Positions 20,267 to 49,176 of a stretch of 64,000 nt of DNA are shown piece by piece; the stretch's first letter is position 1; every line of letters begins with the position of its first letter. The DNA lies in IMG/VR virus record IMGVR_UViG_3300035180_002599, positions 29,310 to 93,309 of that record; one strand, written 5' to 3'. The position numbers and the translations under genes were made by a program. Origin of the DNA: a virus. The notes under the pieces are model-generated. The model worked only from the letters and a program-made list of their open reading frames with translations. It ran no database searches and was not told the DNA's origin.

Positions 20267-20267
20267 A

Positions 20268-30581: not shown

Positions 30582-30948
30582 GGGGTCGAAATAGGATTCG
30601 ACATTTTTTCTGTGTAATATAACAATCAAGCAATCTGGGAAGATTTTAAATATCCAACAAATAATAACAGCAAACTCAACTAGCTATAATACATCTTACG
30701 CACTAGCTGCGTAATGTACGGGGTTGTCAAGACTCGCCCTGTTACCTAAATCTTGACTCCTTGTTTACATAGGATAAAATGTAAGTTGTTCGATATGCAA
30801 TTCATAATCGCGAGTATTAGAAAGTAATACAATCATTATACAATGAATAAATGTTTTGATTTTCGGTTTTTAAGAAAGCCGTCTAAGCTTGTATTAAATT
30901 GTTATGTGAAGGATGAAATGGAACTCGGGGCAGTACCGAGCGACTCCA
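30582..30948 (+). ncRNA. ssrA: tmRNA (one-piece), tag ANSTSYNTSYALAA
   Basis: Acceptor GGGGUCG/CGACUCC-A with G3.U; GGAUUCGAC 5' motif; helix 2 (AUAUAACAAU/AUUGUUAUGU, CAAGC/GCUUG); AUAACA-GCA resume signal; tag ORF 30670-30714 ending YALAA-stop; T arm CUCGG-GGCAGUA-CCGAG. Confidence 0.96.
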
Positions 30949-30951
30949 ATC

Positions 30952-31177
30952 TTTCTAAGAATTAACCTTCACGCGGTGAAAGATGTAAGTACTCGATAGA
31001 GGAAACTAATAATTCTAAAATAAAGTATGAAATGAATATCTTTGAAAAAGAAATAATTTTCCTAGAGGTTTCTTCAGGTATAATGGATAGAATTTATGTT
31101 GGTTGATATACCTGAGTGTTGATTATCAATAAAGGATTTTAGAGGATACAACATCCTCTAAAGTGTAGTTTATAGAA
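30952..31177 (+). ncRNA. Candidate structured RNA downstream of tmRNA
   Basis: No ORF of 60 aa or more; nested stems GAGGAAACU/GGUUUCUUC, CAGGUAUA/UAUACCUG, UACUC/GAGUG, UUUAGAGGAU/AUCCUCUAAA. Confidence 0.45.
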
Positions 31178-31215
31178 ATTAATGGATTTTTATAAAATAC
31201 ATTTGAAAGGTTCTT

Positions 31216-32028
31216 ATGACAAAAAACTTAATGGAAATTCTGGACTCTTGTGAATTTGTAACCAAACACGTAACAATAAATGAAGAATTATTATATTCAT
31301 TTTCTAATAAAATGATTAAACCTATCCCGGTTACACCTAAACATTCCAAAAACTTGAAAATAGATATATACAATAGCATAATGGATTCTGCATTACAATT
31401 CTGTTTTTGGTATGGAAATTCCTCTATTAGAATCAATAATCATTCTAGTTCAGAAATTACTAGATTGGTAAAAGAATATAGTTATGATATTGAGCTATTA
31501 AAGAAGCATATTAGATTAGCTCGATTCCCTAATATCGAGTCCAGAACAAAAATTATAGATGAAATTGGGCCTATTAACACTAACAGAATGAGAAGAATAA
31601 TTTCTATTATATCAAACACTAGAGATGTTGATTCTATATTGAGTACATTAACTGCAGAATTTGATTCATTCGCAAATGATATACTTCTCAAAAAAGCTTT
31701 ATTAACCGTTATGTCTATCCATTTTAAAACTGGAATAATAAAAGATCCAGAAAAGATATTAATTCCTGCTGACTATCAAATTCCTAAAATGCTTAGACAT
31801 TTTGGTATTCTTAAATATTCAAATGAATTAGCATATAAAGTTGACAATAACATACTTCTCCTAGAAAATTCAGAAGAAGAATTAGCTATTCGTATTCAAG
31901 CTATAAAAGCGGTTAAACGGATACAAGATTTATCTCAAGTTCCTTCATATATGATAGATCAAATACTTTTTCATTCTAGAAAAAATATAACATCAAATCA
32001 TCATCTAACAATTACCACGAGTTATTAA
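31216..32028 (+). CDS. Queuosine salvage nucleotide N-glycosylase/hydrolase (DUF2419/Qng1 family)
   Basis: DSALQFCFW, LKKALL, PADYQIPKMLRHFGILKYS, EEELAIR, HHLTITTSY terminus. Confidence 0.87.
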   Translation: MTKNLMEILDSCEFVTKHVTINEELLYSFSNKMIKPIPVTPKHSKNLKIDIYNSIMDSALQFCFWYGNSSIRINNHSSSEITRLVKEYSYDIELLKKHIRLARFPNIESRTKIIDEIGPINTNRMRRIISIISNTRDVDSILSTLTAEFDSFANDILLKKALLTVMSIHFKTGIIKDPEKILIPADYQIPKMLRHFGILKYSNELAYKVDNNILLLENSEEELAIRIQAIKAVKRIQDLSQVPSYMIDQILFHSRKNITSNHHLTITTSY

Positions 32029-32081
32029 TATTATTTTAAGAATAGTTTGATATAATTAGATATTCAACACGAAGGAAAAAA

Positions 32082-32333
32082 ATGTTTGTAAATCTAATTT
32101 CAACAACAAACGCTAAATTTCAAAAATATGTTTGTGACGAGTCTTTAGAACCGAAAGGTCACTTGATATGTCAAACGGGTATATCGTTTTTATACACCCC
32201 TTATTTTCAAAACAATCGGGCTGGTATTTACAAAGGGCTTTTGTCTTCTGTGGTTGACACTATAACAGTTTCTGGAGATATATGTACGGTAAAAACCTTG
32301 AATTCCGTATATGTATTTAAAATGTATGCTTAA
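32082..32333 (+). CDS. Hypothetical protein
   Basis: Own promoter and RBS; C-terminal VKTLNSVYVF motif. Confidence 0.7.
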   Translation: MFVNLISTTNAKFQKYVCDESLEPKGHLICQTGISFLYTPYFQNNRAGIYKGLLSSVVDTITVSGDICTVKTLNSVYVFKMYA

Positions 32334-32395
32334 AGAAAATTTAAGCATTTTATTCTGTGTAATTAAACTACAAAAACAAAATATAAAGGAAAGAG

Positions 32396-32992
32396 ATGAT
32401 TAATTTACAAAAAGGTCAGTCAATCAATTTGTCAAAAGAAGTGAATGCTCAAGGATTACAAAATCTTCGTGCAAGTATCGGATGGGATCCAAATAAGTTT
32501 AACACTGGTGGAAAATTTGATTTGGATATCAGTTGTTTCGCTTTGGCAGATTTGGGCGGAGGTTCTTATAAACTTCAAAAAGGTTCTGATTTCTGTTTTT
32601 ATAATGCACCAATTTCAGCAAACGGAGCTTTGAAATATAGTGGAGATAACACTACAGGTGGGGGAGAAGGTGATGATGAGTACATCGATATTGATTTGAG
32701 CAAAGCTGAAGCTGGCATTACAAACTTTTCAATTGTCGTTAGTATTCCAGAGCCACTTAACAGAACATTAAACTTTGGTATGGTTAGTAACTCATATGTA
32801 AGAATTACAAACACATTGACTGGTGAAGAAATTGCCCGATATGATCTCGGAGAAGATTTCAGCACAGAAACGGCAGTCCAATTCGGTTCAATTTACCTTT
32901 ATAACAATGAATGGAAATTCAAAGCAATCGGGCAAGGGTTTCAAGCAGGTCTTAGTGAATTTTTGGAAGAATACAAATACGATAACAACTAA
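32396..32992 (+). CDS. terD: TerD-family protein
   Basis: INLQKGQSINL, GWD, FDLD, SGDNTTGGGEGDDE, NFGMV, EWKFKAIGQG. Confidence 0.95.
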   Translation: MINLQKGQSINLSKEVNAQGLQNLRASIGWDPNKFNTGGKFDLDISCFALADLGGGSYKLQKGSDFCFYNAPISANGALKYSGDNTTGGGEGDDEYIDIDLSKAEAGITNFSIVVSIPEPLNRTLNFGMVSNSYVRITNTLTGEEIARYDLGEDFSTETAVQFGSIYLYNNEWKFKAIGQGFQAGLSEFLEEYKYDNN

Positions 32993-33036
32993 GTTGTTCT
33001 AAACTATTCAATAAAACATAATTAAAAAGGAATAAC

Positions 33037-33666
33037 GTGGCAGGTATTAATTTAACTAAAGGCCAAATAATCAATTTAAGCAAAGCTCCTGCAGCTTTGA
33101 ATGAGTCAACCGGACTTCGTAAGGTGTCATTTGGTTTGGATTGGGGAATGATTTCTCGTGGTGGTATACTAGGATTTGGTAAAACTAAAGAAAAGGTCGA
33201 TTTGGATGCAAGTGCAGTTCTGATGGATGCCAACAAAAACATTGTCGAAATTGTGTATTTTGGAAACCAAACAAGTTCAAAAGGAACTGTAAGACATTCA
33301 GGTGATGACCGTGGCGGTGATGATGCGGATGATGGAAAAGATAATGAAGTAATTAAAGTTAATTTGGAGTGTATGACTGAAGCAACTCACGTAGCTTTTG
33401 TACTTAACAGTTATTCTGGTCAAGATTTTGGTCAATTGCCATATGTTCGTATTCGTGCATATACAGGAGACCGTGAAGTTCCTTTAGAATCACAAATTCT
33501 TGGTAAAATGGAACTGTCTAAAGATCCTTCTTACAACGGCAAAACCTCAATGGTTATGGGTATCGTTTCAAAAGTAGGTAATGAATGGACATTTAAAGCA
33601 GTTGGTCAAGCAACATCAGATCGCGATGTTCGTGACTTAGCAAGATCATCTCGTAATTTCGTTTAA
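33037..33666 (+). CDS. TerD/TerZ-family protein
   Basis: GLDWG, VDLDASA, HSGDDRGG...DNEVI, LNSYSGQDF, WTFKAVG. Confidence 0.93.
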   Translation: MAGINLTKGQIINLSKAPAALNESTGLRKVSFGLDWGMISRGGILGFGKTKEKVDLDASAVLMDANKNIVEIVYFGNQTSSKGTVRHSGDDRGGDDADDGKDNEVIKVNLECMTEATHVAFVLNSYSGQDFGQLPYVRIRAYTGDREVPLESQILGKMELSKDPSYNGKTSMVMGIVSKVGNEWTFKAVGQATSDRDVRDLARSSRNFV

Positions 33667-33686
33667 TTTTAAAAAAGGATAGAAAG

Positions 33687-34820
33687 ATGGCATTAACACC
33701 AACAAGAGTTGCAGCACCTGCAACTCAATCAACAACTTCGTTTCCACAAACAACAGAAGTTTTAGAAACTGAAATTTCTTCATATATGAATAATATTCCC
33801 CCAGAATATCGAGATGAAGTTTTAGCTAAAAAAGATCAAATTGTTTTTGGTGATATTTCAACCATTCAAAAATTCGGTTCAGAGATTGCTACAGCTAGTG
33901 CAAAATTTACAGCCGAGAGTACAAACGCTATCAAACTGGGTAATGCTGGAGATATTGGTGATAAAATTAATGAGATGATGAGAATTTCTAAGAAATTAGA
34001 TCCATCTAAACTGCTTGACAACAAAGATCCAGGATTTTTTGGTAAACTTTTCGGAAAAACAAAAGACAAAATAATTGAATTTAAAAATGACCAAATGAGC
34101 ATTAATGAATCATTAAAACAACTTGGTAATTCACTTCTTGCTGATGCAAAGTCTTTAGAAAATGAAAATAAAAAACTTGAGGGCATGTACCAACAAAACT
34201 CAGAAAATATCAAACTGTATGACGTTATTTTAGCTGCGGGTATGATTAAGAAACATGAGATTGAATCTCAAATTATTCCACGATTAGTAGAAAAAGCTCA
34301 AGAATCTGGAAAACCTGAAGATGCTAATGAAGTCCGTGCTGGACAAAATTTCCTACGACAATTGGATGTTCGTATAGCAAACATAAATTCAGCACGTTCA
34401 GTTGCAATTCTTCAAGCTCCTGCTCTAAAAGATATGCAAGATAGCAATGCTATGCAAATTGAAAACATTCAAACTATGATTACAATTGGTTTACCAGCAT
34501 GGCACCAACAAATTGCGATGTATATCAGTCAAATGGAAACTCGTCGATCTGTAGAAATTACAAATCAATTGTCTCAAGGTATTAATGAAACAATGAGAGC
34601 TACCGCAGCTTTACAAGGTCAAAATGCAGTTATGATTGCAGAAGCGGCGAACAAAGCTATTATTGATGTTGAAACTATTCAAACTATTCAAACAGAATTG
34701 TTTTCTAGTATGGACAAAGTTAAACAAATCAATGACGCTGGAAAAACAAAACGTGCTGAAACTGCACAGAAACTTCTTTCAATGGAAAGTGAATTGAAGC
34801 AAAAATTGCTTGCTTCATAA
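33687..34820 (+). CDS. telA: TelA toxic anion resistance protein
   Basis: IQKFGSE, GFFGKLFG, helical coiled coil, LQAP, LPAW, IIDVET. Confidence 0.9.
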   Translation: MALTPTRVAAPATQSTTSFPQTTEVLETEISSYMNNIPPEYRDEVLAKKDQIVFGDISTIQKFGSEIATASAKFTAESTNAIKLGNAGDIGDKINEMMRISKKLDPSKLLDNKDPGFFGKLFGKTKDKIIEFKNDQMSINESLKQLGNSLLADAKSLENENKKLEGMYQQNSENIKLYDVILAAGMIKKHEIESQIIPRLVEKAQESGKPEDANEVRAGQNFLRQLDVRIANINSARSVAILQAPALKDMQDSNAMQIENIQTMITIGLPAWHQQIAMYISQMETRRSVEITNQLSQGINETMRATAALQGQNAVMIAEAANKAIIDVETIQTIQTELFSSMDKVKQINDAGKTKRAETAQKLLSMESELKQKLLAS

Positions 34821-34843
34821 TTGAGGGGTTACCCTCAATTTTT
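34819..34843 (+). terminator. Intrinsic terminator
   Basis: aattgaggg-gtta-ccctcaatt followed by a T run. Confidence 0.85.
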
Positions 34844-34954
34844 AAATATAAAAATGTAATTATGGGTGAGAGCATAATGATTGGATCTAACTAATTCAGT
34901 TAAACGAACGGTGTCTTGGGCGGAGGCGCTTAGTAAACATTTTTATATTTAAAA
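34840..34954. other. 115-nt element closed by a perfect 18-bp inverted repeat (candidate ncRNA or miniature mobile element)
   Basis: ttttaaatataaaaatgt (34840-34857) / acatttttatatttaaaa (34937-34954) enclosing internal hairpins. Confidence 0.65.
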
Positions 34955-35075
34955 GTTGTGTAACTTACAAAAAGCTTGAAATAAAACTAGTCTCTCCATT
35001 TAGGAAAGAAAGATTTTTAATTTTTAATTAAGATTAGTCTGATATAATTATACATATGAAAATGAAGGATTTAAT

Positions 35076-35363
35076 ATGAAGAAATTGATGATAATAATTA
35101 GTTTGTGTTCTTTGTTATCGGCAAACATCAATCATAAGAAACCCGAAATTCCTGTGAACAAAATACAGCTATGTTCCATGTATGAGGGTTCATTTATCAC
35201 TTCTGCAGACGTGTATGAAGATACTAAAAGTTGTTATGATTTGAAATATAGTATTTTGAGTTTCAAGCAAATGATTTTAGCTGAATGTGATATAGATCCA
35301 GAATACATTAAAGTGATTTGGTATTTACAAAAAACATATGAGAAAAACTGCGGTGCTGAATAA
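35076..35363 (+). CDS. Small exported Cys-containing protein
   Basis: Signal peptide MKKLMIIISLCSLLSA; own promoter. Confidence 0.7.
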   Translation: MKKLMIIISLCSLLSANINHKKPEIPVNKIQLCSMYEGSFITSADVYEDTKSCYDLKYSILSFKQMILAECDIDPEYIKVIWYLQKTYEKNCGAE

Positions 35364-35508
35364 TGTACTACATGCGAATTCAAAAATCAAAAGGACCTGA
35401 TTCAGAATTCTCTGAAAAAACTTTAGGGCTTTTAATTAAAAGACTAATTGATTGCTGTTATAAAAAATACAGATTATGTCGGTCATTTTATATTAAAGAA
35501 GGAATGAT

Positions 35509-36390
35509 ATGGAACCTCAAGCGTTGTCGATAAAATCAAAACCTAAATTAGAACCCACAGCTTTATCAATTAAAGCTAAGCCAAAAATTGAGGACCAGCC
35601 AAAAGCTCTTAATATTAAATCATCTAGAACTATAATGCCAATTGTACAAGACAAATTTGATTTCAGTTTTGAATATCTTAAATCAAAAATACCAGAAATA
35701 ACTACGTTCATGTTTTCTGAAATAAATAAAACTTTATCAAACGTAGAACAACAAAACCCGCTTGATAATGATATTCTTCTTTTGGGAAAAAAGCTTCAAG
35801 AACGTATAGCAGAAAAATCGGTCCAGGCTTCATCTATTCAGGGCGGTGCGTTGATTGAGCGTGTTTCTAATTCACACAAAATTATTGCTATGAATATAGA
35901 AACTGCAGATAAAGGTTTTTCTGGTTTTTTCAAGAAACTTTTGGGAACTGAAAAAAATAAAGAAGAAATTATTCAAGCTATAAAACATGAACTAAATGTT
36001 AACAAAACATTCAAAAATGATATTTCACAATTTACCGAAAATTATCCTAGATTGTTGAACCAATTTGAGTCTTTGCGAACGGAACTACATGTTAATATTG
36101 AAGTCCTAAAATTAATGCTAGAAGAGTTTTCTATTAAAGATCAAACTAACAATATTGATTTAGTCAACAGACGAATTTCTTCTTTAAATCAGTCTAGAAT
36201 AATTATAGAAACTGCGTCCAATATGATTAAAGCTCAAGAATCAAAAATGGCCTTGTTACAAGATACTATTGATAACGTAGTTAATATATTAGTTCCAATA
36301 TTGCTTAACAAAATGACATTTGAGGATATGAGAGATTCATCCTTTCATGATTTGAGTCAAGATATTATTAAAAAATTACAAACTATGTAA
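35509..36390 (+). CDS. Divergent TelA-like protein with N-terminal repeats
   Basis: Three P.AL.IK repeats; GFSGFFKKLLG and coiled coil parallel to TelA. Confidence 0.6.
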   Translation: MEPQALSIKSKPKLEPTALSIKAKPKIEDQPKALNIKSSRTIMPIVQDKFDFSFEYLKSKIPEITTFMFSEINKTLSNVEQQNPLDNDILLLGKKLQERIAEKSVQASSIQGGALIERVSNSHKIIAMNIETADKGFSGFFKKLLGTEKNKEEIIQAIKHELNVNKTFKNDISQFTENYPRLLNQFESLRTELHVNIEVLKLMLEEFSIKDQTNNIDLVNRRISSLNQSRIIIETASNMIKAQESKMALLQDTIDNVVNILVPILLNKMTFEDMRDSSFHDLSQDIIKKLQTM

Positions 36391-36391
36391 C

Positions 36392-36613
36392 ATGAGATTA
36401 TTATTAGTTTTACTTATTTTTATTATAAGTTACTCTTAAGATGTAGAAATAAACACAATAAATCGAGTACATGATGGAGATATTTTTTTTTCGATTAAAT
36501 CAAAACCGTAGATTGGAGCAAATTCTGAATTCATTGAAAGATTTTACATTAATAGATACTTCTTATAAAGATATAAGGCTCAAACTTTAGATTTCTTGGA
36601 ATCAGAAATCTGA
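36392..36613 (+). pseudogene. Decayed exported thermonuclease (SNase)-like gene
   Basis: Signal peptide MRLLLVLLIFIIS, stop, then INRVHDGD; further in-frame stops. Confidence 0.4.
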
Positions 36614-36744
36614 TACTATAGGTGTAAAGTAGCGAATGATTTTAAATGAGAACATTTTCAGTATATGCTCATTTAAAATCAAGAGAAATATGAGAAATTT
36701 ATTTCTAATTACAAACAAATTATTACCACGATAAAGGACAGAAA

Positions 36745-37137
36745 ATGAAGACACCTTGGGATGAAATGATAGATATCTCTTCTTTTGAAAAAAATGAGGC
36801 ATCTAAACTTTTTATGAAGAAAAGAGATGACCAAATTTTTGAATATAAAATTTCCTATTGTTGGCCTGAAAAATGTAGAACTGAATCAGAGGCGTCAAAC
36901 TTCGTTTTCACATCCATAGGGTTCTATAGAAGCATAGGTGAATTTTTGATGTGGAATGAAGGATTTTCTGATAAATGGTCAGATTTTCTTTTGATAGAAG
37001 AAACAAAAAAAGAACGTAATTCTCTTAGAAATGAATTCTTAAAAAACAAATATTACAATTTAAAAGAAAATAATCATCAGGTGAACATAGAAGAAGATTT
37101 GCAATCTCATTTAATATCTATTCAAATGAATTCTTAA
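36745..37137 (+). CDS. Hypothetical protein
   Basis: ORF with AAGGA RBS. Confidence 0.7.
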   Translation: MKTPWDEMIDISSFEKNEASKLFMKKRDDQIFEYKISYCWPEKCRTESEASNFVFTSIGFYRSIGEFLMWNEGFSDKWSDFLLIEETKKERNSLRNEFLKNKYYNLKENNHQVNIEEDLQSHLISIQMNS

Positions 37138-37196
37138 TATTACTCTAAGGTTATTCTGATATAATTATTGTATCAAAAGAAAAGAAGGAAAAAAAG

Positions 37197-37367
37197 ATGG
37201 AAGCTTTAGCAAATATTGGTATTAGTTGGTCATTGTGGGTGACATGTGTATTTTGGTTTTTGATTGTAATTGTTAATTGGGGAGTACCAAAGTTAGATAT
37301 AGGAAAATTGTTTTTCTTTATCTTTGCACCGGTTCCACTAATTTTATTGGATTTTCTATTGGGTTAA
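37197..37367 (+). CDS. Small two-helix membrane protein (56 aa, absent from the ORF track)
   Basis: MEALANIGISWSLWVTCVFWFLIVIV...; directly behind the repeated promoter cassette. Confidence 0.7.
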   Translation: MEALANIGISWSLWVTCVFWFLIVIVNWGVPKLDIGKLFFFIFAPVPLILLDFLLG

Positions 37368-37496
37368 TTAAATAAAATCTAGTGTAATTGAAGCTTTAGG
37401 TGAATCTAAATTACTCACTCTTGCGAAAGAATGATAATTTTGGATTTGGTGATGTATCATTAATGATGAATACATTAAAACGAAAAAAGGAACAGA

Positions 37497-38156
37497 ATGA
37501 AATTAACAAAAGGCGCTAGCATTTCATTATCTAAAGATGATGATGTTTTAAAAGAAATTACCGTAGGATGTTCTTGGGGAACTTTAAATAAAAATATTGA
37601 TATTGATGTTATGTTATTTTTGGTAAATTCTACAACTAAACAATTAGTAGAAAAAATTTATTACGGTCATCAAATAGCCCGGAATGATTCTGTTATTCAT
37701 TATGGTGATGATACTACTGGATTTAACAAACAACATGAGTCCGACAATGAAGTTATTTTCATTGACTTGAATAAAATGGATAATGGTGTCGATCGAATTT
37801 TGATTTATGTTGATTCTTATTCAGGTTATAAATTGAGCAAAGTCCCTAATTTGAAAGTTAGAGTTTACTCCGGAAAACCAGGTAGAATCAATGAAGTTTT
37901 GTGTTCTTATGAAGTAACTTCAGATTCATCATCTTCTTATTCAATGCACATTGGTGAAATTTACAAAACCATTGCAGGAGAATGGGAATTTAAAGCGGTG
38001 GGTGAATACCGAAAAGAAAACCGTTTAGATCAGATTTTACAATATGTATTATCTACTCTAGATAAACCAGTTGATTCAAAGAACGAACTAGCTGAGATGT
38101 GGAATCGTATATTTTATGGATGGATTAACCCATTTTTCAAACGGATGGCTTCATGA
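37497..38156 (+). CDS. TerD-family protein
   Basis: KLTKGASISL, DID, HYGDDTTG, DNEVI, WEFKAVG. Confidence 0.9.
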   Translation: MKLTKGASISLSKDDDVLKEITVGCSWGTLNKNIDIDVMLFLVNSTTKQLVEKIYYGHQIARNDSVIHYGDDTTGFNKQHESDNEVIFIDLNKMDNGVDRILIYVDSYSGYKLSKVPNLKVRVYSGKPGRINEVLCSYEVTSDSSSSYSMHIGEIYKTIAGEWEFKAVGEYRKENRLDQILQYVLSTLDKPVDSKNELAEMWNRIFYGWINPFFKRMAS

Positions 38157-38623
38157 ATATCTATAAACCTCCATATGAATTACCTAAAGACGAAAGATTA
38201 TCAATCTTTCTAGCAGGTAGCATTGACATGGGAAATGCTACAAATTGGCAAGAAATGATTCAAAATAAATTGCAAATGTTCGATATTAATGTATTCAATC
38301 CTCGAAGAGATGATTGGGATAATTTACAAGAACAATCCGCTAATAATGAATATTTCAAAAAGCAAGTGAACTGGGAATTAGATGCTCTAGATAAAAGTAC
38401 GTGGATTTTAATGTATTTAGAACCGGGGTCTTTAGCTCCAATTAGTTTACTTGAGCTAGGATTATATTCAGACACTTCAAAATTACATGTAGTTTGTCCA
38501 GATGGTTTTTATAGAAAAGGTAATGTTCAGATAGTATGTGAACGTTATGGCATAAAGTTATATAATGATTTGGATAGTTTTATGAATCTATTAATTACAG
38601 CTTTAACAATGTTTGAAAAATAA
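38153..38623 (+). CDS. Nucleoside 2-deoxyribosyltransferase-like N-glycosidase
   Basis: IFLAGSI...WQ, FNPRR, QVNWE, PISLLELG, RKGNV. Confidence 0.88.
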   Translation: MNIYKPPYELPKDERLSIFLAGSIDMGNATNWQEMIQNKLQMFDINVFNPRRDDWDNLQEQSANNEYFKKQVNWELDALDKSTWILMYLEPGSLAPISLLELGLYSDTSKLHVVCPDGFYRKGNVQIVCERYGIKLYNDLDSFMNLLITALTMFEK

Positions 38624-38632
38624 AGGAAAGAC

Positions 38633-39214
38633 ATGAAAAAATTAACAAAAAGCTCTATCATCGATCTTAAAAAAGATGGTGATGATTTAAAGAATATCAG
38701 AGTACAATTGGATTGGGAAACTCCAGAGAATTCCCCATATGGTAGTTTTGATCTGGACGGAAGCGTTTTTGGATTGGTAAAAAGCGAAATTGAAAGTGGT
38801 TATGAATTGTTTGATGAAGATTATTTCATTTATTACAAACATACTGAAACTGAAAATAAAAGTATCGTTCACTCTGGAGACGACAAAACTGGAGAAACCG
38901 GAGAATCTATTGTAATTAAATTAGATTTGATTCCAATTCCAATTTCCCATATTTCATTTTTTGTAACCATCCATCGTGCCATTAAAAAAATGCAAAATTT
39001 TGGAATGGTAAAAAATTCAGTTATTCGTCTTTGGAATGAAGACAATGGTGAATTGATTGCAGAATACAAACTAAATGAATCTTTTTCAGATGAAACTGCG
39101 GTTCATTTTGGAACCATCTATCGAGGAGCCGAAGGTTGGGAATTCAAAGCAATCGGCCAAGGTTATAAACGAGATCTTGCTGATATTTTGTATTCATATG
39201 GTGTCGAAGTTTAA
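38633..39214 (+). CDS. TerD-family protein
   Basis: FDLD, HSGDDKTG, QNFGMVKN, WEFKAIGQG. Confidence 0.93.
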   Translation: MKKLTKSSIIDLKKDGDDLKNIRVQLDWETPENSPYGSFDLDGSVFGLVKSEIESGYELFDEDYFIYYKHTETENKSIVHSGDDKTGETGESIVIKLDLIPIPISHISFFVTIHRAIKKMQNFGMVKNSVIRLWNEDNGELIAEYKLNESFSDETAVHFGTIYRGAEGWEFKAIGQGYKRDLADILYSYGVEV

Positions 39215-39352
39215 GTCATGAATTACTAAATTACAACGGATTTTATATGTCCGTTTGAATGTAGTTTTTGCATAACTAAGTCTAAAAAAGTAAAAAATCA
39301 TATGTTTTATGATTCTAAAATATTTGACTAATCAAAAAATGAAAGGTAATTT

Positions 39353-39784
39353 ATGAAAAAAGTATTATGGATATGTGCTTTATTTGGCACATTGATTTCG
39401 GCAGATGAGCACACTTTGGGTCTATACTGTTCTGATGAACAAGTAGGAATTTCAATAAGTGAAGATTCATATGTTCAAAGTTCAGTTAATTGGGCGGCGT
39501 GTTTAAACAAATCCACAATCAAATTTAACAAGAAAACAAAAACGTATTCGGTTTGGACTACATTTTTAGCAACCAATAAGAATGTTAATATGATTAATTC
39601 TAACGCTGGTTATATGAGAGTTCTTAAAGAGTTTAATCCAAAAACTAAACAAGTTCGTGCAATTGAAGCTAACATTTATAGTTGCAATGGTACATATATG
39701 ACCAGTTTTGATATAGAGCCTTGGTATAATATTGTTCCAAACTCACTTGATGAAGAAATCTTAACAGCAATGTTATCTAAATAA
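39353..39784 (+). CDS. Exported protein
   Basis: Signal peptide; C-terminal W..IVPNS motif like adhesin-E-type folds. Confidence 0.65.
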   Translation: MKKVLWICALFGTLISADEHTLGLYCSDEQVGISISEDSYVQSSVNWAACLNKSTIKFNKKTKTYSVWTTFLATNKNVNMINSNAGYMRVLKEFNPKTKQVRAIEANIYSCNGTYMTSFDIEPWYNIVPNSLDEEILTAMLSK

Positions 39785-39794
39785 AAGGAAGAAA

Positions 39795-40823
39795 ATGAAA
39801 GCTAATATGAAATACTTCACAGGAAGTTTTTGGTTTACTGTAATTGCAATGGTGTTGGGTTATGTATATGGTATGTATACTACAGGTTCTGTAGCGGCAT
39901 CTATGAGTATGGTTGCCGTTATTGGTATTTTGAGCGTTCTTGAGGTGTCATTATCATTCGATAATGCAATTGTCAATGCTAAAATTTTAAAAGATATGGA
40001 CGAGGTATGGCGCAAACGTTTTGTTACCTGGGGAATGGTGATTGCGGTTTTAGGAATGCGTTTAATATTTCCAGTAGTTATTGTATCACTTGCCGGTTCT
40101 ATGGGAATGTGGGAAGCGTTTAGTTTAGGATTTTCAAATCCAACTGAATATTCTCGAATTTTAAATGAAAGTCATACAAGCGTAGCTGGATTTGGTGGGG
40201 CCTTTTTGTTATTGGTTTCATTAGGTTTCTTTTTTGATTATGAAAAAGATGTCCATTGGGTTAAACATGTTGAATATTATCTATCTAAAATTGGTGCGGT
40301 AAAATCATCAGAAGTTTTAGTAACATTATCCGCATTGGTTGGCATTACATATATGTTACCAGAAACAGAACAAATGGCGTTTTTGATTGCAGGTATAGCG
40401 GGTGTTATTACGCATGAAGTGGTTAAAGGTCTTGGTGATCTTATGGAAGCAGGTGAAGAAGCGACCATTAGTGTTGCCAAAGCAGGATTAATGAGTTTAC
40501 TTTACCTTGAAGTTTTAGATGCATCATTTAGTTTTGATGGTGTAGTAGCCTCATTCGTTATCACTAAAGATATTATTATTATCGCATTGGGTCTTGGGGT
40601 TGGTGCAATGTTTGTTCGTTCATTGACATTGTTCTTCGTAGCAAAAGATACATTAGGTGAGTTCAAATATTTGGAACATGGCGCATTTTGGGCAATTTTG
40701 TCATTGGCTGTTATTATGTTTATGAGCACAATGTGTCATATTCCAGAATTGGTATCTGGGTCTATTGCAGTGGTTCTTATTGGTGCAAGTTTAATTTCAT
40801 CAGTTCTTCACAAAGAAGAATAA
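39795..40823 (+). CDS. TerC-like membrane protein (DUF475)
   Basis: LEVSLSFDNA.VNA, GMRL.FP, YLEVLDASFSFDGV, GAMFVRSLT, YLEHGA. Confidence 0.93.
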   Translation: MKANMKYFTGSFWFTVIAMVLGYVYGMYTTGSVAASMSMVAVIGILSVLEVSLSFDNAIVNAKILKDMDEVWRKRFVTWGMVIAVLGMRLIFPVVIVSLAGSMGMWEAFSLGFSNPTEYSRILNESHTSVAGFGGAFLLLVSLGFFFDYEKDVHWVKHVEYYLSKIGAVKSSEVLVTLSALVGITYMLPETEQMAFLIAGIAGVITHEVVKGLGDLMEAGEEATISVAKAGLMSLLYLEVLDASFSFDGVVASFVITKDIIIIALGLGVGAMFVRSLTLFFVAKDTLGEFKYLEHGAFWAILSLAVIMFMSTMCHIPELVSGSIAVVLIGASLISSVLHKEE

Positions 40824-42302: not shown

Positions 42303-42344
42303 GACTATTATGATATAATATGTTATTAAAAAGAAGGATGGAAA

Positions 42345-43556
42345 ATGTTCGACGTTCTTGTTATGGTAATAGCAAATCCATTGTTATGGGTTAATATAAC
42401 AATCCCGTTTATGATTGGAGTGTTTTTAGTTTTTTCTAAAATTGATTATACCCCCAAAGAATTCGCAATTCAATTTTCAGTTACATTTGTGTTTTTGTTT
42501 ATTGTTTATTTGATTGCTTTTGGAACCACCGCTAATTTGTTTCATAAAGTGTATTACAACACTTCAGTAAATTCTATTACTTATTATGAAGCATGGGATG
42601 AAGAAGTTCATTACACAGAAGAAGAATGTTCAGGAACTGGAAATAAAAAATCATGCACAACTGTTTACAGAACTCGAATAGATCATCACCCAAAATATTG
42701 GGAATTAGTTGATAATTTAAATGGATCTATGAATGTTGATGAATCTGATTATATAAAAGCACGTAACAAATACGGTGCAAAGAAAGAATATCTTCATCAT
42801 TCAGGTCAAGTGTCTTACGGAGATGGGAACGCTTTTAAAGTCACGGTTACAGATATTGTTCCTCATGTTCAAACACATGAAGAAGTTAATTATGTAAAAG
42901 CAGTCAAATACAATATTGTTAAATCCGAAACATTCCCTAAAAAGATTGAAGCCTATAAAAAGTCAGGTCAATTATTGGAATACCCATCAATCATGTTGGG
43001 TGATATTGGAAATTATTATATAGAACGAGTACTAAAAGCCAAAAATGTACTAATAAATGATTCAAATATGACTAAACAATTGGAAGAATATGCATCAATT
43101 GCTGGATCTTCCAAACAAGTAAATCCTTTGGTTTATATTGTAAAAAATCAAAGTCCGGAATTTACAGAGGTATTAAAAGCTTATTGGGTTAATGGTTCTA
43201 AAAATGATGCTATATTGATTTTAAATATCAATGATGATAATATTATCACTTGGAGTGATACTATTTCATGGACTAAAAATCCTAAATTTTTAGTGCAAAA
43301 TCAAACCATTTACACTGGATTGAATATCAATGACCCAAAAGTAACCGAGTTGTTTATATCACAAATTCAATCAAATTTCAAACGGGTTTCTATGAAAGAA
43401 TATGAATATTTGAAAAACAATATAGATTTATCAATTACAGCTGAATTAGTGATAATTGTTATAAACTTGATATTGTCTGGAATTGTATTCTTTTATTTTT
43501 CAACACAAAATCCATTTAATTCAACTAAAAATTATGGAGAAAATAGATGGAGATAA
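42345..43556 (+). CDS. Membrane protein with large periplasmic domain
   Basis: Two N-terminal TMs and one C-terminal TM; W.NG.KND motif. Confidence 0.75.
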   Translation: MFDVLVMVIANPLLWVNITIPFMIGVFLVFSKIDYTPKEFAIQFSVTFVFLFIVYLIAFGTTANLFHKVYYNTSVNSITYYEAWDEEVHYTEEECSGTGNKKSCTTVYRTRIDHHPKYWELVDNLNGSMNVDESDYIKARNKYGAKKEYLHHSGQVSYGDGNAFKVTVTDIVPHVQTHEEVNYVKAVKYNIVKSETFPKKIEAYKKSGQLLEYPSIMLGDIGNYYIERVLKAKNVLINDSNMTKQLEEYASIAGSSKQVNPLVYIVKNQSPEFTEVLKAYWVNGSKNDAILILNINDDNIITWSDTISWTKNPKFLVQNQTIYTGLNINDPKVTELFISQIQSNFKRVSMKEYEYLKNNIDLSITAELVIIVINLILSGIVFFYFSTQNPFNSTKNYGENRWR

Positions 43557-43996
43557 AAGAAATTCAGAACAATCCGTCTGTAAATTTTGAGTACATTATT
43601 ATTGATACATTAGAGGTAGGTATAGAACTTAAATCATTTGAGATCAAACAAATAGCTCTTAAAAAATGCAATATTAAAGGGTCTTTTTGTAAAATAATAA
43701 AAGGCGAAGTAATTTTGTTTGATATGAATATTGAACAATACAAAGATGCCGTATTTTATGATAAGATAGAACCGAAACGTCAAAGAAAGATCCTTATGCA
43801 TAAAAAGCAAATCAAACGTTGGAAACAAGAGATGGATTTAAATCAACATTACTCCATTGTTCCTCAGAAGATTTATATCAACTCAGAAGGTCGTTGTAAA
43901 ATATTGATGTGTTTGTGTAAAGGTAAAAAATTACACGATAAAAGAAATTCAATCAAAGATAGAGATATCTCAAGAAAGGTAAAAAATGATTTCTAA
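43547..43996 (+). CDS. smpB: SsrA-binding protein
   Basis: EVGIELKSFEIK, EPKRQRKILMHKKQI, IVPQKIY, KGKKLHDKR tail; 149 aa. Confidence 0.93.
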   Translation: MEIKEIQNNPSVNFEYIIIDTLEVGIELKSFEIKQIALKKCNIKGSFCKIIKGEVILFDMNIEQYKDAVFYDKIEPKRQRKILMHKKQIKRWKQEMDLNQHYSIVPQKIYINSEGRCKILMCLCKGKKLHDKRNSIKDRDISRKVKNDF

Positions 43997-44435: not shown

Positions 44436-44436
44436 A

Positions 44437-44697: not shown

Positions 44698-44709
44698 AAA
44701 AGGATTTAT

Positions 44710-45198: not shown

Positions 45199-45351
45199 TT
45201 AAGAATCTTTTTATCATTAGCTCTTTCAAAATCAATAAAGTTATTGTTTTAGGTAAAATTTTGTTTATGTACCTTATGATATTATTAATTCCTAAATTTT
45301 ATAAAAACAAAAGAATAAAATGTTATAATATACAAAATAGAAGGAGAGCTT

Positions 45352-45618
45352 ATGTTAAAAGTTATTTTAGATGCTATTCATGAATTAGCGTTTGTAAACA
45401 TTGGTAATAAAAATGCAGAAATATCAATTAAGGTTTCTGATTTGGAATTATTGCGTTTGAGAATCTTGGAGCTTGAAAAAGAAAACAAACGTTTGAAAAA
45501 TGATAATGAAACAAAAACTACAAAGTTAGATGTCATTAGAGAGCAGTTAAATATCTTAGACGCTAAACTTACTATGCGTACAACATTTGATGATTATAAA
45601 AAAAGATATAATAGATAG
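45352..45618 (+). CDS. Coiled-coil hypothetical protein
   Basis: Own promoter and GGAG RBS. Confidence 0.7.
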   Translation: MLKVILDAIHELAFVNIGNKNAEISIKVSDLELLRLRILELEKENKRLKNDNETKTTKLDVIREQLNILDAKLTMRTTFDDYKKRYNR

Positions 45619-45625
45619 GAATAAT

Positions 45626-45895
45626 ATGAAATTACAAGCCGTTTTCAAAACTATTAAAAACAATAAAGATTTAATAGCTTTTCCTATTGTATTAGCATTG
45701 ATGTTGCTTATTCCAAGTCATAAATTTTTATATTCAGATACTCCGGATTTCGTTATTCAAATGATGGACAACCTTGCTATTAATACTATTGTGTTGATGG
45801 TAATTATAATTTCTCCTATGATTTGGGTAATATTGAAAGAAAATGTAAACAAGATATTAGATGATTATAAATATTTTTCTGAGGAGATCAAATGA
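45626..45895 (+). CDS. Small membrane protein
   Basis: Two TMs. Confidence 0.65.
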   Translation: MKLQAVFKTIKNNKDLIAFPIVLALMLLIPSHKFLYSDTPDFVIQMMDNLAINTIVLMVIIISPMIWVILKENVNKILDDYKYFSEEIK

Positions 45896-46266
45896 AAGAG
45901 CTTATTGAATTTAACATGAGTTATTTTAACATATTGAGCTGTTGTGATTATCATCATAAGATATTACGTATTGAAGAACTAAAACTTTCTTTCAAAAATT
46001 CAAAGAACAAAATAATTGAGTTAAGATTCAGCGAATCTGATATTAAACAATTTAGGCATAAATCACATTATATAGACATGACCAAATTGAAAGATATTCC
46101 ACGAGATTACAAGTTATTTTGTGTAAGACGTAATGTTGTTACTCCTGGTGTTTTCCGAAATGAGACGGAATCTGTTGATAACGTACTCATTCATATTACA
46201 AAACCAGTACCAATAAGTATACTAAATAGACAGTATGATGAATTCATAAAGAGTTATACTTGGTAA
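45892..46266 (+). CDS. Hypothetical protein
   Basis: GAGGAG RBS. Confidence 0.65.
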   Translation: MKELIEFNMSYFNILSCCDYHHKILRIEELKLSFKNSKNKIIELRFSESDIKQFRHKSHYIDMTKLKDIPRDYKLFCVRRNVVTPGVFRNETESVDNVLIHITKPVPISILNRQYDEFIKSYTW

Positions 46267-46325
46267 TTTTAATGTTACTATAAGTTTATTATGTTATAAT
46301 ATAAAAATTAAAACAAGGAAAGAAA

Positions 46326-46862
46326 ATGTCAGCTATGATTTTAAAAGCTATTAATTTTGCTACATCAAAGCATGAAGGGAAAAAACGAAAAGGTTCAGGT
46401 GAGCCATATATTGTTCATTCCATCATGGTAAGTTATATTCTTGCTGAATACAAACAATCAAAAAACATTGAAGAACTGGTTTGTGCTGCTTTACTTCATG
46501 ACACACTAGAGGAAACAGAAACAACTTTCAATGAAATAGTGAATGAATTCACTCCTTTGGTAGCTTCACTTGTAATGGAATTAACTTCAGATAGTGCTCT
46601 TATTAAACAAATAGGCAAAAATGAGTACCTTAAAATCAAACTTTGTGGAATTTCTAATTATGGTTTGATTTTGAAGTTTGCTGACTTACTTGGACATATC
46701 TCTTATAACCCATCTATAAAAATGGTAGATGATGCTATTGATTTGATTAATCATGTTCGTAAAAATAGAAAACTCACATCAGCTCAAGAGTCTATTGCTA
46801 TGGACATTTTAGCCAAATGTAAGGTTATAACAAATCAACGCAAAGTGGAGTCAGAAAAATGA
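46326..46862 (+). CDS. Small alarmone hydrolase (Mesh1/SpoT-type HD domain)
   Basis: A..FA...HEG..RKGSGEPYIVH, AALLHDTLE, V.ELT, LKFAD. Confidence 0.9.
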   Translation: MSAMILKAINFATSKHEGKKRKGSGEPYIVHSIMVSYILAEYKQSKNIEELVCAALLHDTLEETETTFNEIVNEFTPLVASLVMELTSDSALIKQIGKNEYLKIKLCGISNYGLILKFADLLGHISYNPSIKMVDDAIDLINHVRKNRKLTSAQESIAMDILAKCKVITNQRKVESEK

Positions 46863-47152
46863 ATAAAGTAAAATTTATAATCAAATCATTGATAGATGAA
46901 AATACCGAGCTTCCCTTTTTATTTTTAATTGTGTGGTGTTTATTAGGAGTTGCATTTTTTCCTTGGGTTCCATTTCCCCATAATGTAGACTGGTTTCTTG
47001 GATATGTTATTAAATTTTGGATGATGTTTATTGGAACGGTTTTTTTCCTTAGTGGCATTTGGGTTATTTACTTTTCAATGAAGTATATATTATATATATG
47101 GAATAAAGTGAAAATCTTATCATCACAATATGATAAAAATCAAAGATCTTGA
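46859..47152 (+). CDS. Membrane protein
   Basis: Two TMs. Confidence 0.65.
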   Translation: MNKVKFIIKSLIDENTELPFLFLIVWCLLGVAFFPWVPFPHNVDWFLGYVIKFWMMFIGTVFFLSGIWVIYFSMKYILYIWNKVKILSSQYDKNQRS

Positions 47153-47170
47153 AAATGTAAAGGATAAAAA

Positions 47171-47347
47171 ATGTATTATGAATTTAAATGTGAAAATAAT
47201 AATTGTGAGCTTTTTGAACAAACTGTAGAGAAAAATATCTCATATAAAGACTTGGATAGTCAAGTTTGTGAAAAATGCGGAGATCCATTAAAACGGATCT
47301 GGAATACCAATGTTGGTATTAAAACCTCAGATGGATATAAATCATGA
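47171..47347 (+). CDS. FmdB-family zinc-ribbon protein (58 aa, absent from the ORF track)
   Basis: MYYEFKC....C...CEKCG..LKRI; AAGGA RBS. Confidence 0.8.
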   Translation: MYYEFKCENNNCELFEQTVEKNISYKDLDSQVCEKCGDPLKRIWNTNVGIKTSDGYKS

Positions 47348-47589
47348 AAAAAACTAATTTATTAATAGCGTCGTTGATAACAGCGTATTATGAAAAAAAT
47401 AAAATTCTTCCTTTCACTGCTTTAGAATCAGATGAAGATACAGATGTAATATCTTTTGATGTCCAATCAGATTTTATAGATGAATTTAAAAAACATTCCA
47501 CAAAAAATTTCAATAAATCATTTGAGGATTTTGTAAATGAAACTTTAGAAAAAACATTAAAGGATATAAAAGATGGAATCGAACTTTGA
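47344..47589 (+). CDS. Hypothetical protein
   Basis: Coupled ORF. Confidence 0.6.
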   Translation: MKKTNLLIASLITAYYEKNKILPFTALESDEDTDVISFDVQSDFIDEFKKHSTKNFNKSFEDFVNETLEKTLKDIKDGIEL

Positions 47590-47866
47590 TCCTCAAGCTG
47601 TACTAAAATCATTAGAAACATGGAGAGAGTTTTATGATGATGAACCTCCATTTATGGTAGTTAAAGATCCTATAGGAAATAAGAGTATATCCTCTGCTGA
47701 TTTGCAAGATATTGAAAATGCTGTAATTTCATTTAGAAATGAATTCCTTAGTCTTGTGGAATCTAATCTACAAAGAAAAATGAACAAAGCTGAATTAGAC
47801 GAACTTAGCTATGGCGTGTATTTCGTTTATAAGTTAATTCAGGGTTCTCACAATGAGCATTTTTGA
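47573..47866 (+). CDS. Hypothetical protein
   Basis: AAGGA RBS. Confidence 0.65.
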   Translation: MESNFDPQAVLKSLETWREFYDDEPPFMVVKDPIGNKSISSADLQDIENAVISFRNEFLSLVESNLQRKMNKAELDELSYGVYFVYKLIQGSHNEHF

Positions 47867-48059
47867 TTATAAATTTTCTGTAAGTTACAATCCAAAGGCA
47901 GATTGTTTTATTATAAAAATGAATGGAACTAATAATATCTTGGTTACAATAGCTACGGAATTTGAAAATATTAAATCTGAAATAACATATCTAAATGAGA
48001 AAGATTTCATCGATTATTCATCGAAATATATCATTGGATCTTATACTCTTGATAAATAA
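47853..48059 (+). CDS. Hypothetical protein
   Basis: Overlapping ORF in operon. Confidence 0.55.
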   Translation: MSIFDYKFSVSYNPKADCFIIKMNGTNNILVTIATEFENIKSEITYLNEKDFIDYSSKYIIGSYTLDK

Positions 48060-48083
48060 TAATAAAGCACACTGGAGAATATT

Positions 48084-48341
48084 ATGAAATTCAGCACTAT
48101 GGTTAACATTAACGAAACGGCTAAAGATGTTATTAAAGGTGTAAATTCACCTGAAGCTTACGATTTATTAAAAGGATTTGATAGATACGCTGCTTATATA
48201 GATGACGGCGATACGCATCGTAGAGTACAAGCTCAAAATCATGAGATTTTGCAAAAACTAAAAGAAATGGGTGCAACTGAAGTTGACTTGCAAATTATGA
48301 AATATGATGGATCTAATGATATCTGGAAAATAAAACTATAA
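48084..48341 (+). CDS. Putative internal virion protein
   Basis: GATAAATA at 48051-48058; MKFSTMVNINE leader. Confidence 0.65.
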   Translation: MKFSTMVNINETAKDVIKGVNSPEAYDLLKGFDRYAAYIDDGDTHRRVQAQNHEILQKLKEMGATEVDLQIMKYDGSNDIWKIKL

Positions 48342-48351
48342 GGAATAACAT

Positions 48352-48753
48352 ATGTCTAAATATGTGGAAATTCCTCTAAAAGATGAGTGGTTTATACATA
48401 TAACCACTAAAGAAAATGCCGAATTGATATTAAAATCAAAGAAGCTATTCGCATCAAAATCAAAATTAGGAATCGGAGAAACATTTGCTTTAAGTACATC
48501 ATTTGGGATATGGTCAAACTCCTTGCCTTTGGATATTTTAAAAGCAACAGACAGCACTCATTCAGCTATAATGTTTCAAGTGACTACTAAACCAAACATT
48601 GCGGAAATTAATCAAATTGTTTGGAAAAAAGATATTTCTATAAAAAAAGCTAAAATGATAAAATTATCAAAAGCTAAAAATGAATTGTCATCTAAAAGGG
48701 TTAGGAAATATTCAATTCCTACATCGAATACACCCCCGATAAAATATATCTAA
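48352..48753 (+). CDS. Basic hypothetical protein, possible ART-like N-terminus
   Basis: FIHITTKENAELILKSKKL resembles the HxT...I...L strand-helix of ADP-ribosyltransferases. Confidence 0.45.
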   Translation: MSKYVEIPLKDEWFIHITTKENAELILKSKKLFASKSKLGIGETFALSTSFGIWSNSLPLDILKATDSTHSAIMFQVTTKPNIAEINQIVWKKDISIKKAKMIKLSKAKNELSSKRVRKYSIPTSNTPPIKYI

Positions 48754-48762
48754 AGGAAAGAG

Positions 48763-49176
48763 ATGATTTCTAAACAAGTCATTGTTGTTAGAAAAGATTT
48801 AAATATGCCCGAAGGAAAGTTAGCTGCTCAAGTTTCTCATGCTTCCATGGCCCCTCTCATTGAAAAATTGAGAGGATTCTCTCACGATTTAGTAACCCCC
48901 ACAGATACAGAACAAAGACTTTTTATAGATTTAATACCAGGAGATGCTTGGAAAGATTGGATTGATGGAAGATTTCGCAAAATTGTAGTTTATGTAAAAT
49001 CAGAACAAAAACTCTTAGATATTTTTAACAAAGCTAAAGAGGCTAAATTACCTTGCTCTTTAATTAAAGATGCAGGATTTACGGTTTTTAATGAACCTAC
49101 TTATACTTGTGTTGGTATAGGACCTTGCTGGGCTGAGGATGTTGATAAAATAACAGGAAAACTAAGATTACTTTAA
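48763..49176 (+). CDS. pth2: Peptidyl-tRNA hydrolase type 2
   Basis: KQVIVVRKDLNM..GK.AAQ..HA, KIVV, DAG.T, T.VGIGP, ITG.L.LL. Confidence 0.95.
   Translation: MISKQVIVVRKDLNMPEGKLAAQVSHASMAPLIEKLRGFSHDLVTPTDTEQRLFIDLIPGDAWKDWIDGRFRKIVVYVKSEQKLLDIFNKAKEAKLPCSLIKDAGFTVFNEPTYTCVGIGPCWAEDVDKITGKLRLL

Follow-up and report, generated by a model that had tools for sequence, protein, structure and literature searches.

A lytic T4-like jumbo phage probably carries its own complete and working trans-translation pair, composed of a transfer-messenger RNA (tmRNA) together with SmpB, the protein that partners it, and relying on host factors for its operation. Both genes are located in the window analysed here, a stretch of 64,000 nt comprising bases 29310-93309 of the 93,309-bp IMG/VR virus record IMGVR_UViG_3300035180_002599, which was estimated by CheckV to be 38% complete; positions are given in window numbering unless stated otherwise. 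The GC content varied from 28% to 33% across the window. A phage-borne rescue pair had been proposed in an earlier note made from the letters of this DNA, and the sequence supports it well: both genes are intact, both products carry the conserved features that define their families, and both are preceded by promoters of the same class.

The tmRNA gene was identified using Rfam and by direct reading. The RF00023 match extends from 30582 to 30949 on the + strand, covers the full model (1-374), and scored 60.7 bits (gathering score 47, E 2.9e-21). It is the only RF00023 match in the 93-kb record; the RF04321 score of the same gene is only 22.3 bits. The gene order is standard, with the 5' acceptor strand at 30582 and the T arm 340 nt downstream. 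The acceptor stem (GGGGUCG/CGACUCC) includes a G3:U pair and is followed by a discriminator A at 30948, so that the alanine identity elements are present, and the D-loop region reads AAAUAGGAUUCGAC. The tag ANSTSYNTSYALAA was read exactly as in the earlier note. The resume codon GCA is preceded by U at -5 and A at -4, and the tag terminates in the canonical ALAA degron, of the hydrophobic xLAA type, followed by the stop codon. The minimum free energy fold (z = -2.08) recovered the acceptor stem, the T arm, the hairpin of the tag, and a P2 helix of considerable length. A candidate pseudoknot resembling PK2 follows the tag (Table 1); in the PK1 region before the tag, a 5-bp hairpin (AAUCU/AGAUU) and a possible 3-bp second stem can be drawn.

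The gene had been described as a full tmRNA, which holds for its coverage of the Rfam model, but no 3' CCA is encoded (the 3' end reads CGACUCC-A-AUC) and the T-loop, GGCAGUA, lacks U54/U55 and is not of the T-Psi-C type. ARAGORN and Rfam had been suggested as checks, and they gave different answers: Rfam detected the gene above its gathering score, but no tmRNA was called in the window by ARAGORN with default or relaxed settings. The miss is due to the GGCAGUA T-loop and not to the absence of a gene. A DNA search with the tmRNA region against the INPHARED phages found no relative, and blastn of the tmRNA against 355 fetched loci gave short matches in the tRNA-like domain (TLD) only, with no similarity elsewhere. 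The possibility that the locus is a prophage attachment remnant was also considered and rejected, given the full-length gene, its own promoter, and the lytic T4-like genome.

The smpB gene is situated 12.6 kb from the tmRNA gene, close to the 13 kb noted previously. The PF01668 search that had been proposed for its product returned 135.1 bits against a cut-off of 27; the NCBIfam equivalogs TIGR00086 and NF003843 gave 142.2 bits (cut-off 119.1) and 132.1 bits (cut-off 130), and phmmer against the SmpBs of PDB gave an E value of 6e-26. The AlphaFold model (predicted local distance difference test score, pLDDT, 80.1) was matched by Foldseek to 7LJP, 1P6V, and 2CZJ with target-normalised template modelling (TM) scores of 0.85-0.91 and root-mean-square deviations of 1.6-2.2 A. 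These structures include forms bound to the TLD, and the predicted model contains the OB-like beta-barrel with flanking helices. The motifs NPSVNFEY (residues 9-16) and GKKLHDKR (residues 126-133) are present as previously described. In comparison with 149 library representatives, N9, Y16, E23, G25, L28, E32, K34, R80, K81, H85, K118, GKK, H130, and DKR are kept. Dulebohn et al. in 2006 reportedly tied residues E31, L91, N93/H, and K124 of E. coli SmpB to tmRNA binding; Y24, H136, and DKR of the E. coli protein are tied to the decoding centre. The tmRNA-binding and decoding-centre residues are conserved in the phage protein (E23, L83, H85, K118, Y16, H130, D131-K132-R133, and G126-K127-K128 in its own numbering).

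The earlier description of this SmpB as divergent and short-tailed was borne out in part. Its tail after DKR comprises 16 residues, predicted to be helical, a length towards the lower limit of normal variation (median 20; equal or shorter in 9 of 93 other SmpBs). The substitutions within NPSVNFEY each occur singly elsewhere, including P10 in 6 of the 149 other SmpBs, and P10 is the only one of them that is confined to this phage among the members of its clade. A HMMER search against 1.84 billion cluster representatives yielded only one protein beyond 1e-30 (58% identity), the next being 43% identical, and three metagenome proteins showed 58-79% identity. The five proteins of the group define a small, isolated clade with two small insertions and no evident bacterial donor; among candidate donors, Pelagibacterales proteins were 36-39% identical, those of Sphingomonas 33%, those of Saccharibacteria 29-33%, and Bacteroidota-like sequences about 41%. 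No relatives were found in IMG/VR using SmpB alone or the clade alignment, and a search of the JGI metagenomes retrieved one contig of 1.3 kb. The smpB gene overlaps both neighbouring open reading frames (ORFs) in a tight operon whose first gene encodes a membrane protein. A homologue of this membrane protein also precedes smpB in the related metagenome contig L363, from a relative with 62% identity, which indicates that smpB is a stable resident of this phage lineage.

The two genes share the main promoter motif of the phage, TGnTATAAT, which occurs in 24 copies on the + strand and 4 on the - strand; 17 of the copies sit 28-48 nt upstream of an ORF start. The shared layout is TTAAT-N8-TAAGG-N7-TG(A/T)TATAAT, and the TTAAT and TAAGG blocks are common to about 20 gene promoters. 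An early promoter claimed previously for the tmRNA corresponds to TGTTATAAT at 30555-30563, one of the 24 copies on the + strand, 19 nt ahead of the mature 5' end. The promoter of the smpB operon, TGATATAAT, has the same upstream blocks, so both partners are wired into the main promoter class. This class is probably read by host sigma-70, which would give early expression, and transcription of the tmRNA may start near 30570, in which case RNase P would have some 12 nt of leader to remove. An additional late promoter had been claimed at 30564-30571 (CATAAATA, one mismatch from the T4 consensus TATAAATA); it was rejected as a degenerate motif with no bias in strand or position, since the + strand has 7 copies of NATAAATA and the - strand 8, with no enrichment above chance. 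Six terminator-like sites, against 0.3 expected, were counted in 1 kb, including a hairpin downstream of the gene (Table 1). In the phage promoters of the TG(A/T)TATAAT type generally, an AAGGA(G/T) ribosome-binding site usually follows after about 20 nt, and near-identical 5' untranslated regions (tattgtatcaaaagaa...) were observed at 7242, 10772, 37157, 40990, and 57913.

Table 1. Coordinates of the features discussed in the text (window numbering)
Feature	Position	Strand	Basis and details
tmRNA promoter	30531-30563	+	TTAATA-N-TTTAAGG-N-TGTTATAAT; extended -10 at 30555-30563
One-piece tmRNA (ssrA), G1 to discriminator A	30582-30948	+	RF00023, direct reading
Tag reading frame, 14 codons, ANSTSYNTSYALAA	30670-30714	+	Resume GCA at 30670, stop TAA at 30712-30714
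Tag-stop hairpin, 7 bp, holding the stop codon	30696-30714	+	Folding
Candidate H-type pseudoknot, PK2-like, after the tag	30719-30760	+	CGGGG/CCCUG interleaved with GUCAAGA/UCUUGAC; folds and inspection
3' half of the TLD	30920-30947	+	Junction GGAA, T stem CUCGG/CCGAG, acceptor 3' strand CGACUCC
T-loop GGCAGUA	30929-30935	+	Direct reading; stem of 5 bp
Terminator-like hairpin, 12 bp, downstream of the tmRNA	31136-31164	+	
smpB-operon promoter TGATATAAT	42311-42319	+	Same upstream blocks as the tmRNA promoter
Membrane protein, 403 aa	42345-43556	+	phrog_2087; first gene of the smpB operon, 10-nt overlap with smpB
smpB, 149 aa, complete with C-terminal tail	43547-43996	+	PF01668, TIGR00086, NF003843
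HD_4 protein, 178 aa, RelA/SpoT hydrolase domain only	46326-46862	+	PF13328, 49.4 bits; between smpB and Pth2
Pth2-type peptidyl-tRNA hydrolase, 137 aa	48763-49176	+	PF01981, TIGR00283
Tail sheath	12470-13927		T4-type core gene
gp55-like late sigma factor	14663-15535		T4-type core gene
Clamp loader	19280-20266		T4-type core gene
ClpP-related serine protease	20666-21517	+	PF00574, 37-38 bits; outside the interval 30582-49176
vWA (CoxE/TerF-like) gene	21514-22113		Upstream of the Ter cluster
UvsX-like recombinase	23093-24142		T4-type core gene
RlaP-family ("RNA repair pathway") nucleotidyltransferase	27087-28097		Pfam, 41.8 bits; phrog_388, 228 bits

To place the TLD, its T arm was compared with those of bacterial and viral tmRNAs. 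The exact T arm with a free acceptor was absent from 185,579 bacterial species (one genome each). A looser T-loop motif matched more than 120 bacterial genomes, nearly all of them Alphaproteobacteria with permuted two-piece tmRNAs (Pelagibacter, Sphingomonadales, and Rhodospirillales); about a dozen belonged to Saccharibacteria and unclassified metagenome-assembled genomes, and their tmRNAs are one-piece, scored 67-102 bits with Rfam, and are invisible to ARAGORN. ARAGORN missed all of the one-piece GGCAGUA tmRNAs, namely that of the phage and those of 12 fetched loci from Saccharibacteria or unclassified metagenome-assembled genomes. In IMG/VR, the T-loop motif and the 5' motif GGGGUCGAAAUAGGAU(U)CGAC were each found in more than 119 contigs. 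Every typeable viral tmRNA fetched for this class is permuted (137 by ARAGORN and more by Rfam), and no second one-piece example of the GGCAGUA class was found among the viral contigs. The 21-nt 5' end of the window tmRNA is identical in locus L386, and its 25-nt T arm and acceptor are identical in the permuted tmRNA of the IMG/VR contig L002. The window gene is thus a one-piece tmRNA carrying a TLD of the "alpha/phage" class. Among viral contigs, the identical 20-mer GGGGTCGAAATAGGATCGAC was observed at the 5' end of the permuted tmRNA in more than 119 cases, and it suggests a phage-specific two-piece tmRNA sublineage with very diverse tags, some of at least 20 residues. The acceptor GGGGTCG occurred in only 2 of the 77 alphaproteobacterial tmRNAs fetched.

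Convergence, transfer, or re-permutation of a two-piece gene are possible origins of the combination of a one-piece gene with an alpha-class TLD. A fuller version of the last of these, in which the tmRNA was re-permuted from the two-piece lineage of marine T4-like phages and then co-evolved with a private SmpB clade (G30S/S35Q/R37A, GGAA junction), seems improbable. It draws on the identical 21-nt 5' and 25-nt 3' halves of the TLD and the shared GGCAGUA, and the return to the one-piece order could run, for example, through a tandem duplication. For a re-permuted tmRNA, a single precedent was found in print, namely a gene in the mitochondria of Jakoba libera (cited in PMC11915505). If true, such a history would make the phage genes a natural, partly insulated rescue pair.

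Taken as a working pair dependent on the host, the system could operate as follows. The standard promoter of the phage would drive synthesis of a one-piece tmRNA precursor, which host RNase P and 3' trimming enzymes would mature and to which the host CCA-adding enzyme would have to supply CCA. Host alanyl-tRNA synthetase (AlaRS) would charge the tmRNA with alanine, recognising G3:U and the discriminator A. The phage SmpB, produced from an operon with the same promoter type, would bind the TLD and, together with host EF-Tu, deliver the tmRNA to ribosomes that have stalled on an mRNA that is broken or lacks a stop codon. Translation would then resume at GCA and add ANSTSYNTSYALAA, and the ALAA end would hand the product to the ordinary ssrA-tag proteases of the host. 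The phage would supply SmpB along with the RNA because tmRNA needs SmpB in stoichiometric amounts. The likeliest benefit would be extra or continuing rescue after host expression is shut off, while the phage or host defences cut mRNA and tRNA.

Several observations weigh against this interpretation. All five clade members differ at three near-invariant residues of SmpB helix 1 (S for G30, Q for S35, and A or V for R37), positions at which the 149 other SmpBs have G in 145, S in 127, and R/K in 127 cases. A dependence of these replacements on the T-loop type was examined and rejected, since ordinary SmpBs with G/S/R at the three positions serve GGCAGUA tmRNAs in Pelagibacter, Sphingomonas, and Saccharibacteria. 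On the side of the RNA, no homologous tmRNA was found in the searches above, hence the pseudoknots have no covariation support, and the Rfam alignment is of low confidence from the tag to P2. The junction ahead of the T stem is GGAA instead of the near-invariant GGAC, xxGAC being present in 135 of the 139 viral tmRNAs of the GGCAGUA class. CCA is encoded in 132 of the same 139 tmRNAs and in all of the phage's own tRNA genes that were checked (genome C1:13064-14172, upstream of the window), and it is missing from the window tmRNA; no CCA-adding enzyme was found in the 93 kb, and the completeness of the record is only 38%. However, CCA is "not always" encoded at this position in tmRNA genes (PMC11915505, Fig. 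1 legend), so its absence points to reliance on a host enzyme and is not disqualifying.

The earlier note went further and proposed a partly orthogonal pair. In such a private pair, the phage SmpB and tmRNA would have co-evolved towards a mutual preference, so that rescue would outlast the destruction or inhibition of the host tmRNA or SmpB, or the host SmpB would not be shared. This is unlikely. The tmRNA-binding and decoding-centre residues of SmpB are all conserved, and the use of GGCAGUA tmRNAs by G/S/R SmpBs in three bacterial groups shows that this T-loop type does not require changes in SmpB; none of the features tested supports orthogonality, although the isolation of the SmpB clade (one library representative at 58%, the next at 43%), its two small insertions, the residues S30, Q35, and A/V37 in all five members, and a tmRNA with a GGAA junction, no U54/U55 in the T-loop, and no close relative in the collections searched would fit such a pair. 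Quite improbable, too, is an uncharged tmRNA serving as a decoy or regulator that titrates host SmpB, blocks host trans-translation, or senses stalled ribosomes, comparable to the RNA of mycobacteriophage DS6A that consists of a TLD only. Inhibition of endogenous tmRNA by a phage TLD-only molecule has been described (PMC4131195, PMC11915505), and CCA is missing from the tmRNA gene and encoded in the phage tRNAs; but not every tmRNA gene encodes CCA (PMC11915505), and the window RNA is full-length and retains the AlaRS identity elements as well as an intact tag frame, suitably positioned and ending in a canonical degron and a stop codon. Moreover, a phage that titrates SmpB would have no reason to carry an intact smpB of its own. 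In T4, tRNAs without encoded CCA are matured by host enzymes.

Offensive tagging, in which early expression would mark nascent host chains for amino-acid recycling or the products would be rerouted to the ClpP-related protease of the phage, is very improbable. The tmRNA acts on stalled ribosomes only and thus cannot by itself select host proteins, even if the sigma-70 extended -10 promoter is compatible with early expression and the recycling idea has been raised for phage Melnitz (PMC9004378). A ClpP-fold protease is indeed encoded in the genome, but its gene belongs to a replication/nucleotide module at a distance of 10 kb, its nearest families are head-maturation proteases, it falls far under the ClpP equivalog, and the ORFs scanned included no unfoldase resembling ClpX/ClpA. 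With the standard ALAA at its end, the tag requires no new protease, and the rerouting to a different protease suggested earlier found no support. A host-dependent phage pair with an ordinary rescue function therefore remains the preferred reading.

Other genes related to translation are encoded nearby. Pth2, which the earlier note had counted within the same system, was correctly recognised (PF01981, 112.7 bits, cut-off 23; TIGR00283, 99.1 bits, cut-off 82), with NF003314 at 113.3 bits, below the cut-off of 126. Its homologues with 42-47% identity are annotated as peptidyl-tRNA hydrolases in jumbo phages, and it is best regarded as a common jumbo-phage accessory outside trans-translation. The HD_4 protein was matched by TIGR00691 solely in the N-terminal hydrolase portion. 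This candidate small alarmone (ppGpp) hydrolase is a translation-stress neighbour, likewise outside trans-translation. Pth2, this ppGpp-hydrolase-like protein, and the tRNA array each contribute separately to the same toolkit to keep translation running and do not form one machine with the tmRNA-SmpB pair. The window also contains an RlaP-family nucleotidyltransferase (Table 1), and RtcB and RF-1/ArfB domains were not found in the 93 kb.

A ClpP-like protease had also been assigned to the system. The CLP_protease match exists and is the only one in the record, but it lies outside the interval, about 10 kb from the tmRNA on the other side, and the product resembles head-maturation proteases and not ClpP. 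With the ClpP equivalog TIGR00493 it scored 19.7 bits (cut-off 308.6), with the ClpP-related prohead and head-maturation models 44-50 bits, also below their cut-offs, and with phrog_26628, "head maturation protease", 125 bits. The gene is flanked by MazG and a von Willebrand factor A (vWA) protein in a replication/nucleotide module that includes the clamp loader, and not in a head module. The protease is probably not part of the rescue system, as nothing links it to the tag. A head-maturation-type ClpP-fold protease is odd in a T4-like phage, in which a gp21-type prohead protease is expected. A Ter stress cluster (32396-40823) occupies most of the 12.6 kb that separate the tmRNA from smpB; it comprises four TerD paralogues, TelA, DUF475/TerC, and a nucleoside 2-deoxyribosyltransferase-like gene. 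The named bacterial homologues of the DUF475 protein are alphaproteobacterial (Sphingomonadales, about 51% identity).

The record is a fragment of a large or jumbo phage with a lytic T4-like genome; besides the tail sheath, the gp55-like late sigma factor, the clamp loader, and the UvsX-like recombinase (Table 1), SbcCD-like nucleases were detected. If the completeness of 38% is right, the genome size would be about 245 kb. The clamp loader is about 43% identical to its counterpart in Campylobacter Fletchervirus phages, and the tail sheath shares 42% identity with that of Campylobacter phages and 47% with that of Vibrio phages of 190 kb, so the closest cultured phages are distant. Both tmRNA and SmpB are absent in the nearest cultured kin, namely Campylobacter phages CP81 and CP220 and Vibrio phage phiKT1024.

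The evidence on the host is mixed. Core genes about 43% identical to those of Eucampyvirinae phages and promoters with an extended -10 and AT-rich upstream blocks favour Campylobacterota, although this promoter style is common to unrelated AT-rich bacteria (PMC3325076). The T-loop class, the similar tags of Pelagibacter (such as ANESYALAA), and the DUF475 protein, about 51% identical to those of Sphingomonadales, favour Alphaproteobacteria. A Bacteroidota host is unlikely given the strong Shine-Dalgarno sites, although the SmpB tail resembles theirs. The YALAA end of the tag had been contrasted with YAKAA in Campylobacter and Helicobacter; the ALAA end is correct, but the contrast presupposes a host that is unproven.

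The findings extend phage trans-translation from megaphages of at least 500 kb to a T4-like lineage with a distant relationship to Campylobacter phages, and they lend support to the idea that the host's ribosome rescue is limiting in infection. ARAGORN was the sole tmRNA finder in the two main phage surveys (PMC7162821, PMC9004378), and because it is blind to one-piece GGCAGUA tmRNAs, the counts of such phage tmRNAs are probably too low. For probing the role of the three near-invariant helix-1 residues, the isolated SmpB clade offers a natural variant. The details worth noting are thus the one-piece tmRNA with an alpha-type T-loop that ARAGORN misses, its missing CCA, and the private SmpB clade.

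Among sequenced phages, a tmRNA is present in about 2% (PMC9004378). The earlier statement that a cognate SmpB is uncommon is fair for cultured phages, but huge phages have already been reported to encode both tmRNA and SmpB (PMC7162821, Al-Shayeb 2020), and the co-occurrence was verified here in Lak-B5, Lak-A1, and LR756504, with RF00023 scores of 48, 54, and 65 bits, respectively, and an SmpB match in all three. As in the window, their one-piece tmRNA and SmpB genes are unlinked and lie amid other translation genes. However, the Lak and LR756504 genomes are 540-640 kb in size and not T4-like, whereas the window phage is T4-like and of about 245 kb, and its SmpB, in a clade of its own, is only 36-39% identical to theirs. 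A further sequence, GenBank MT835488.1 ("Bacteriophage sp."), contains smpB directly followed by a 142-bit tmRNA at 19594-20490, in the usual bacterial order, and may represent host DNA or a prophage flank. The stand-alone Pth2 of archaeal/eukaryotic type in Xanthomonas phages XacN1 and Xoo-sp13, Ralstonia phage RsoM2USA, Agrobacterium phage Atu_ph07, and mycobacteriophages is 42-47% identical to that of the window, which is ordinary in this respect.

With the bacterial system, represented by E. coli and T. thermophilus (PDB 4V8Q, 7AC7, and 2CZJ), the phage pair shares the family-defining elements of both partners and the ALAA tag end. It differs in the GGCAGUA T-loop, the missing CCA, the GGAA junction, the G30S/S35Q/R37A replacements in SmpB, and the distance of 12.6 kb between the genes; this T-loop makes the m5U54 and Psi55 modifications (described in PMC3968760) impossible in the phage tmRNA. 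Two-piece tmRNAs of alphaproteobacterial type have been described in marine T4-like myophages (Melnitz and pelagimyophages; PMC9004378), with which the window shares the TLD class, GGCAGUA, the T4-like background, and an early-type promoter. The tmRNAs of these myophages are permuted, whereas that of the window is in the standard order with a pseudoknot region after the tag, and the myophages have not been reported to carry SmpB, the record of L002 having none. The one-piece tmRNAs of Saccharibacteria have the standard order and GGCAGUA, as in the window, but their D-loop region is AGCUUCGAC in comparison with AGGAUUCGAC in the phage, they encode CCA, their GC content is 42-53%, and their SmpBs are only 29-33% identical to the phage protein. 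The phage tmRNA-SmpB pair is therefore already known as a type of system, and the window presents a new, somewhat unusual example of it.

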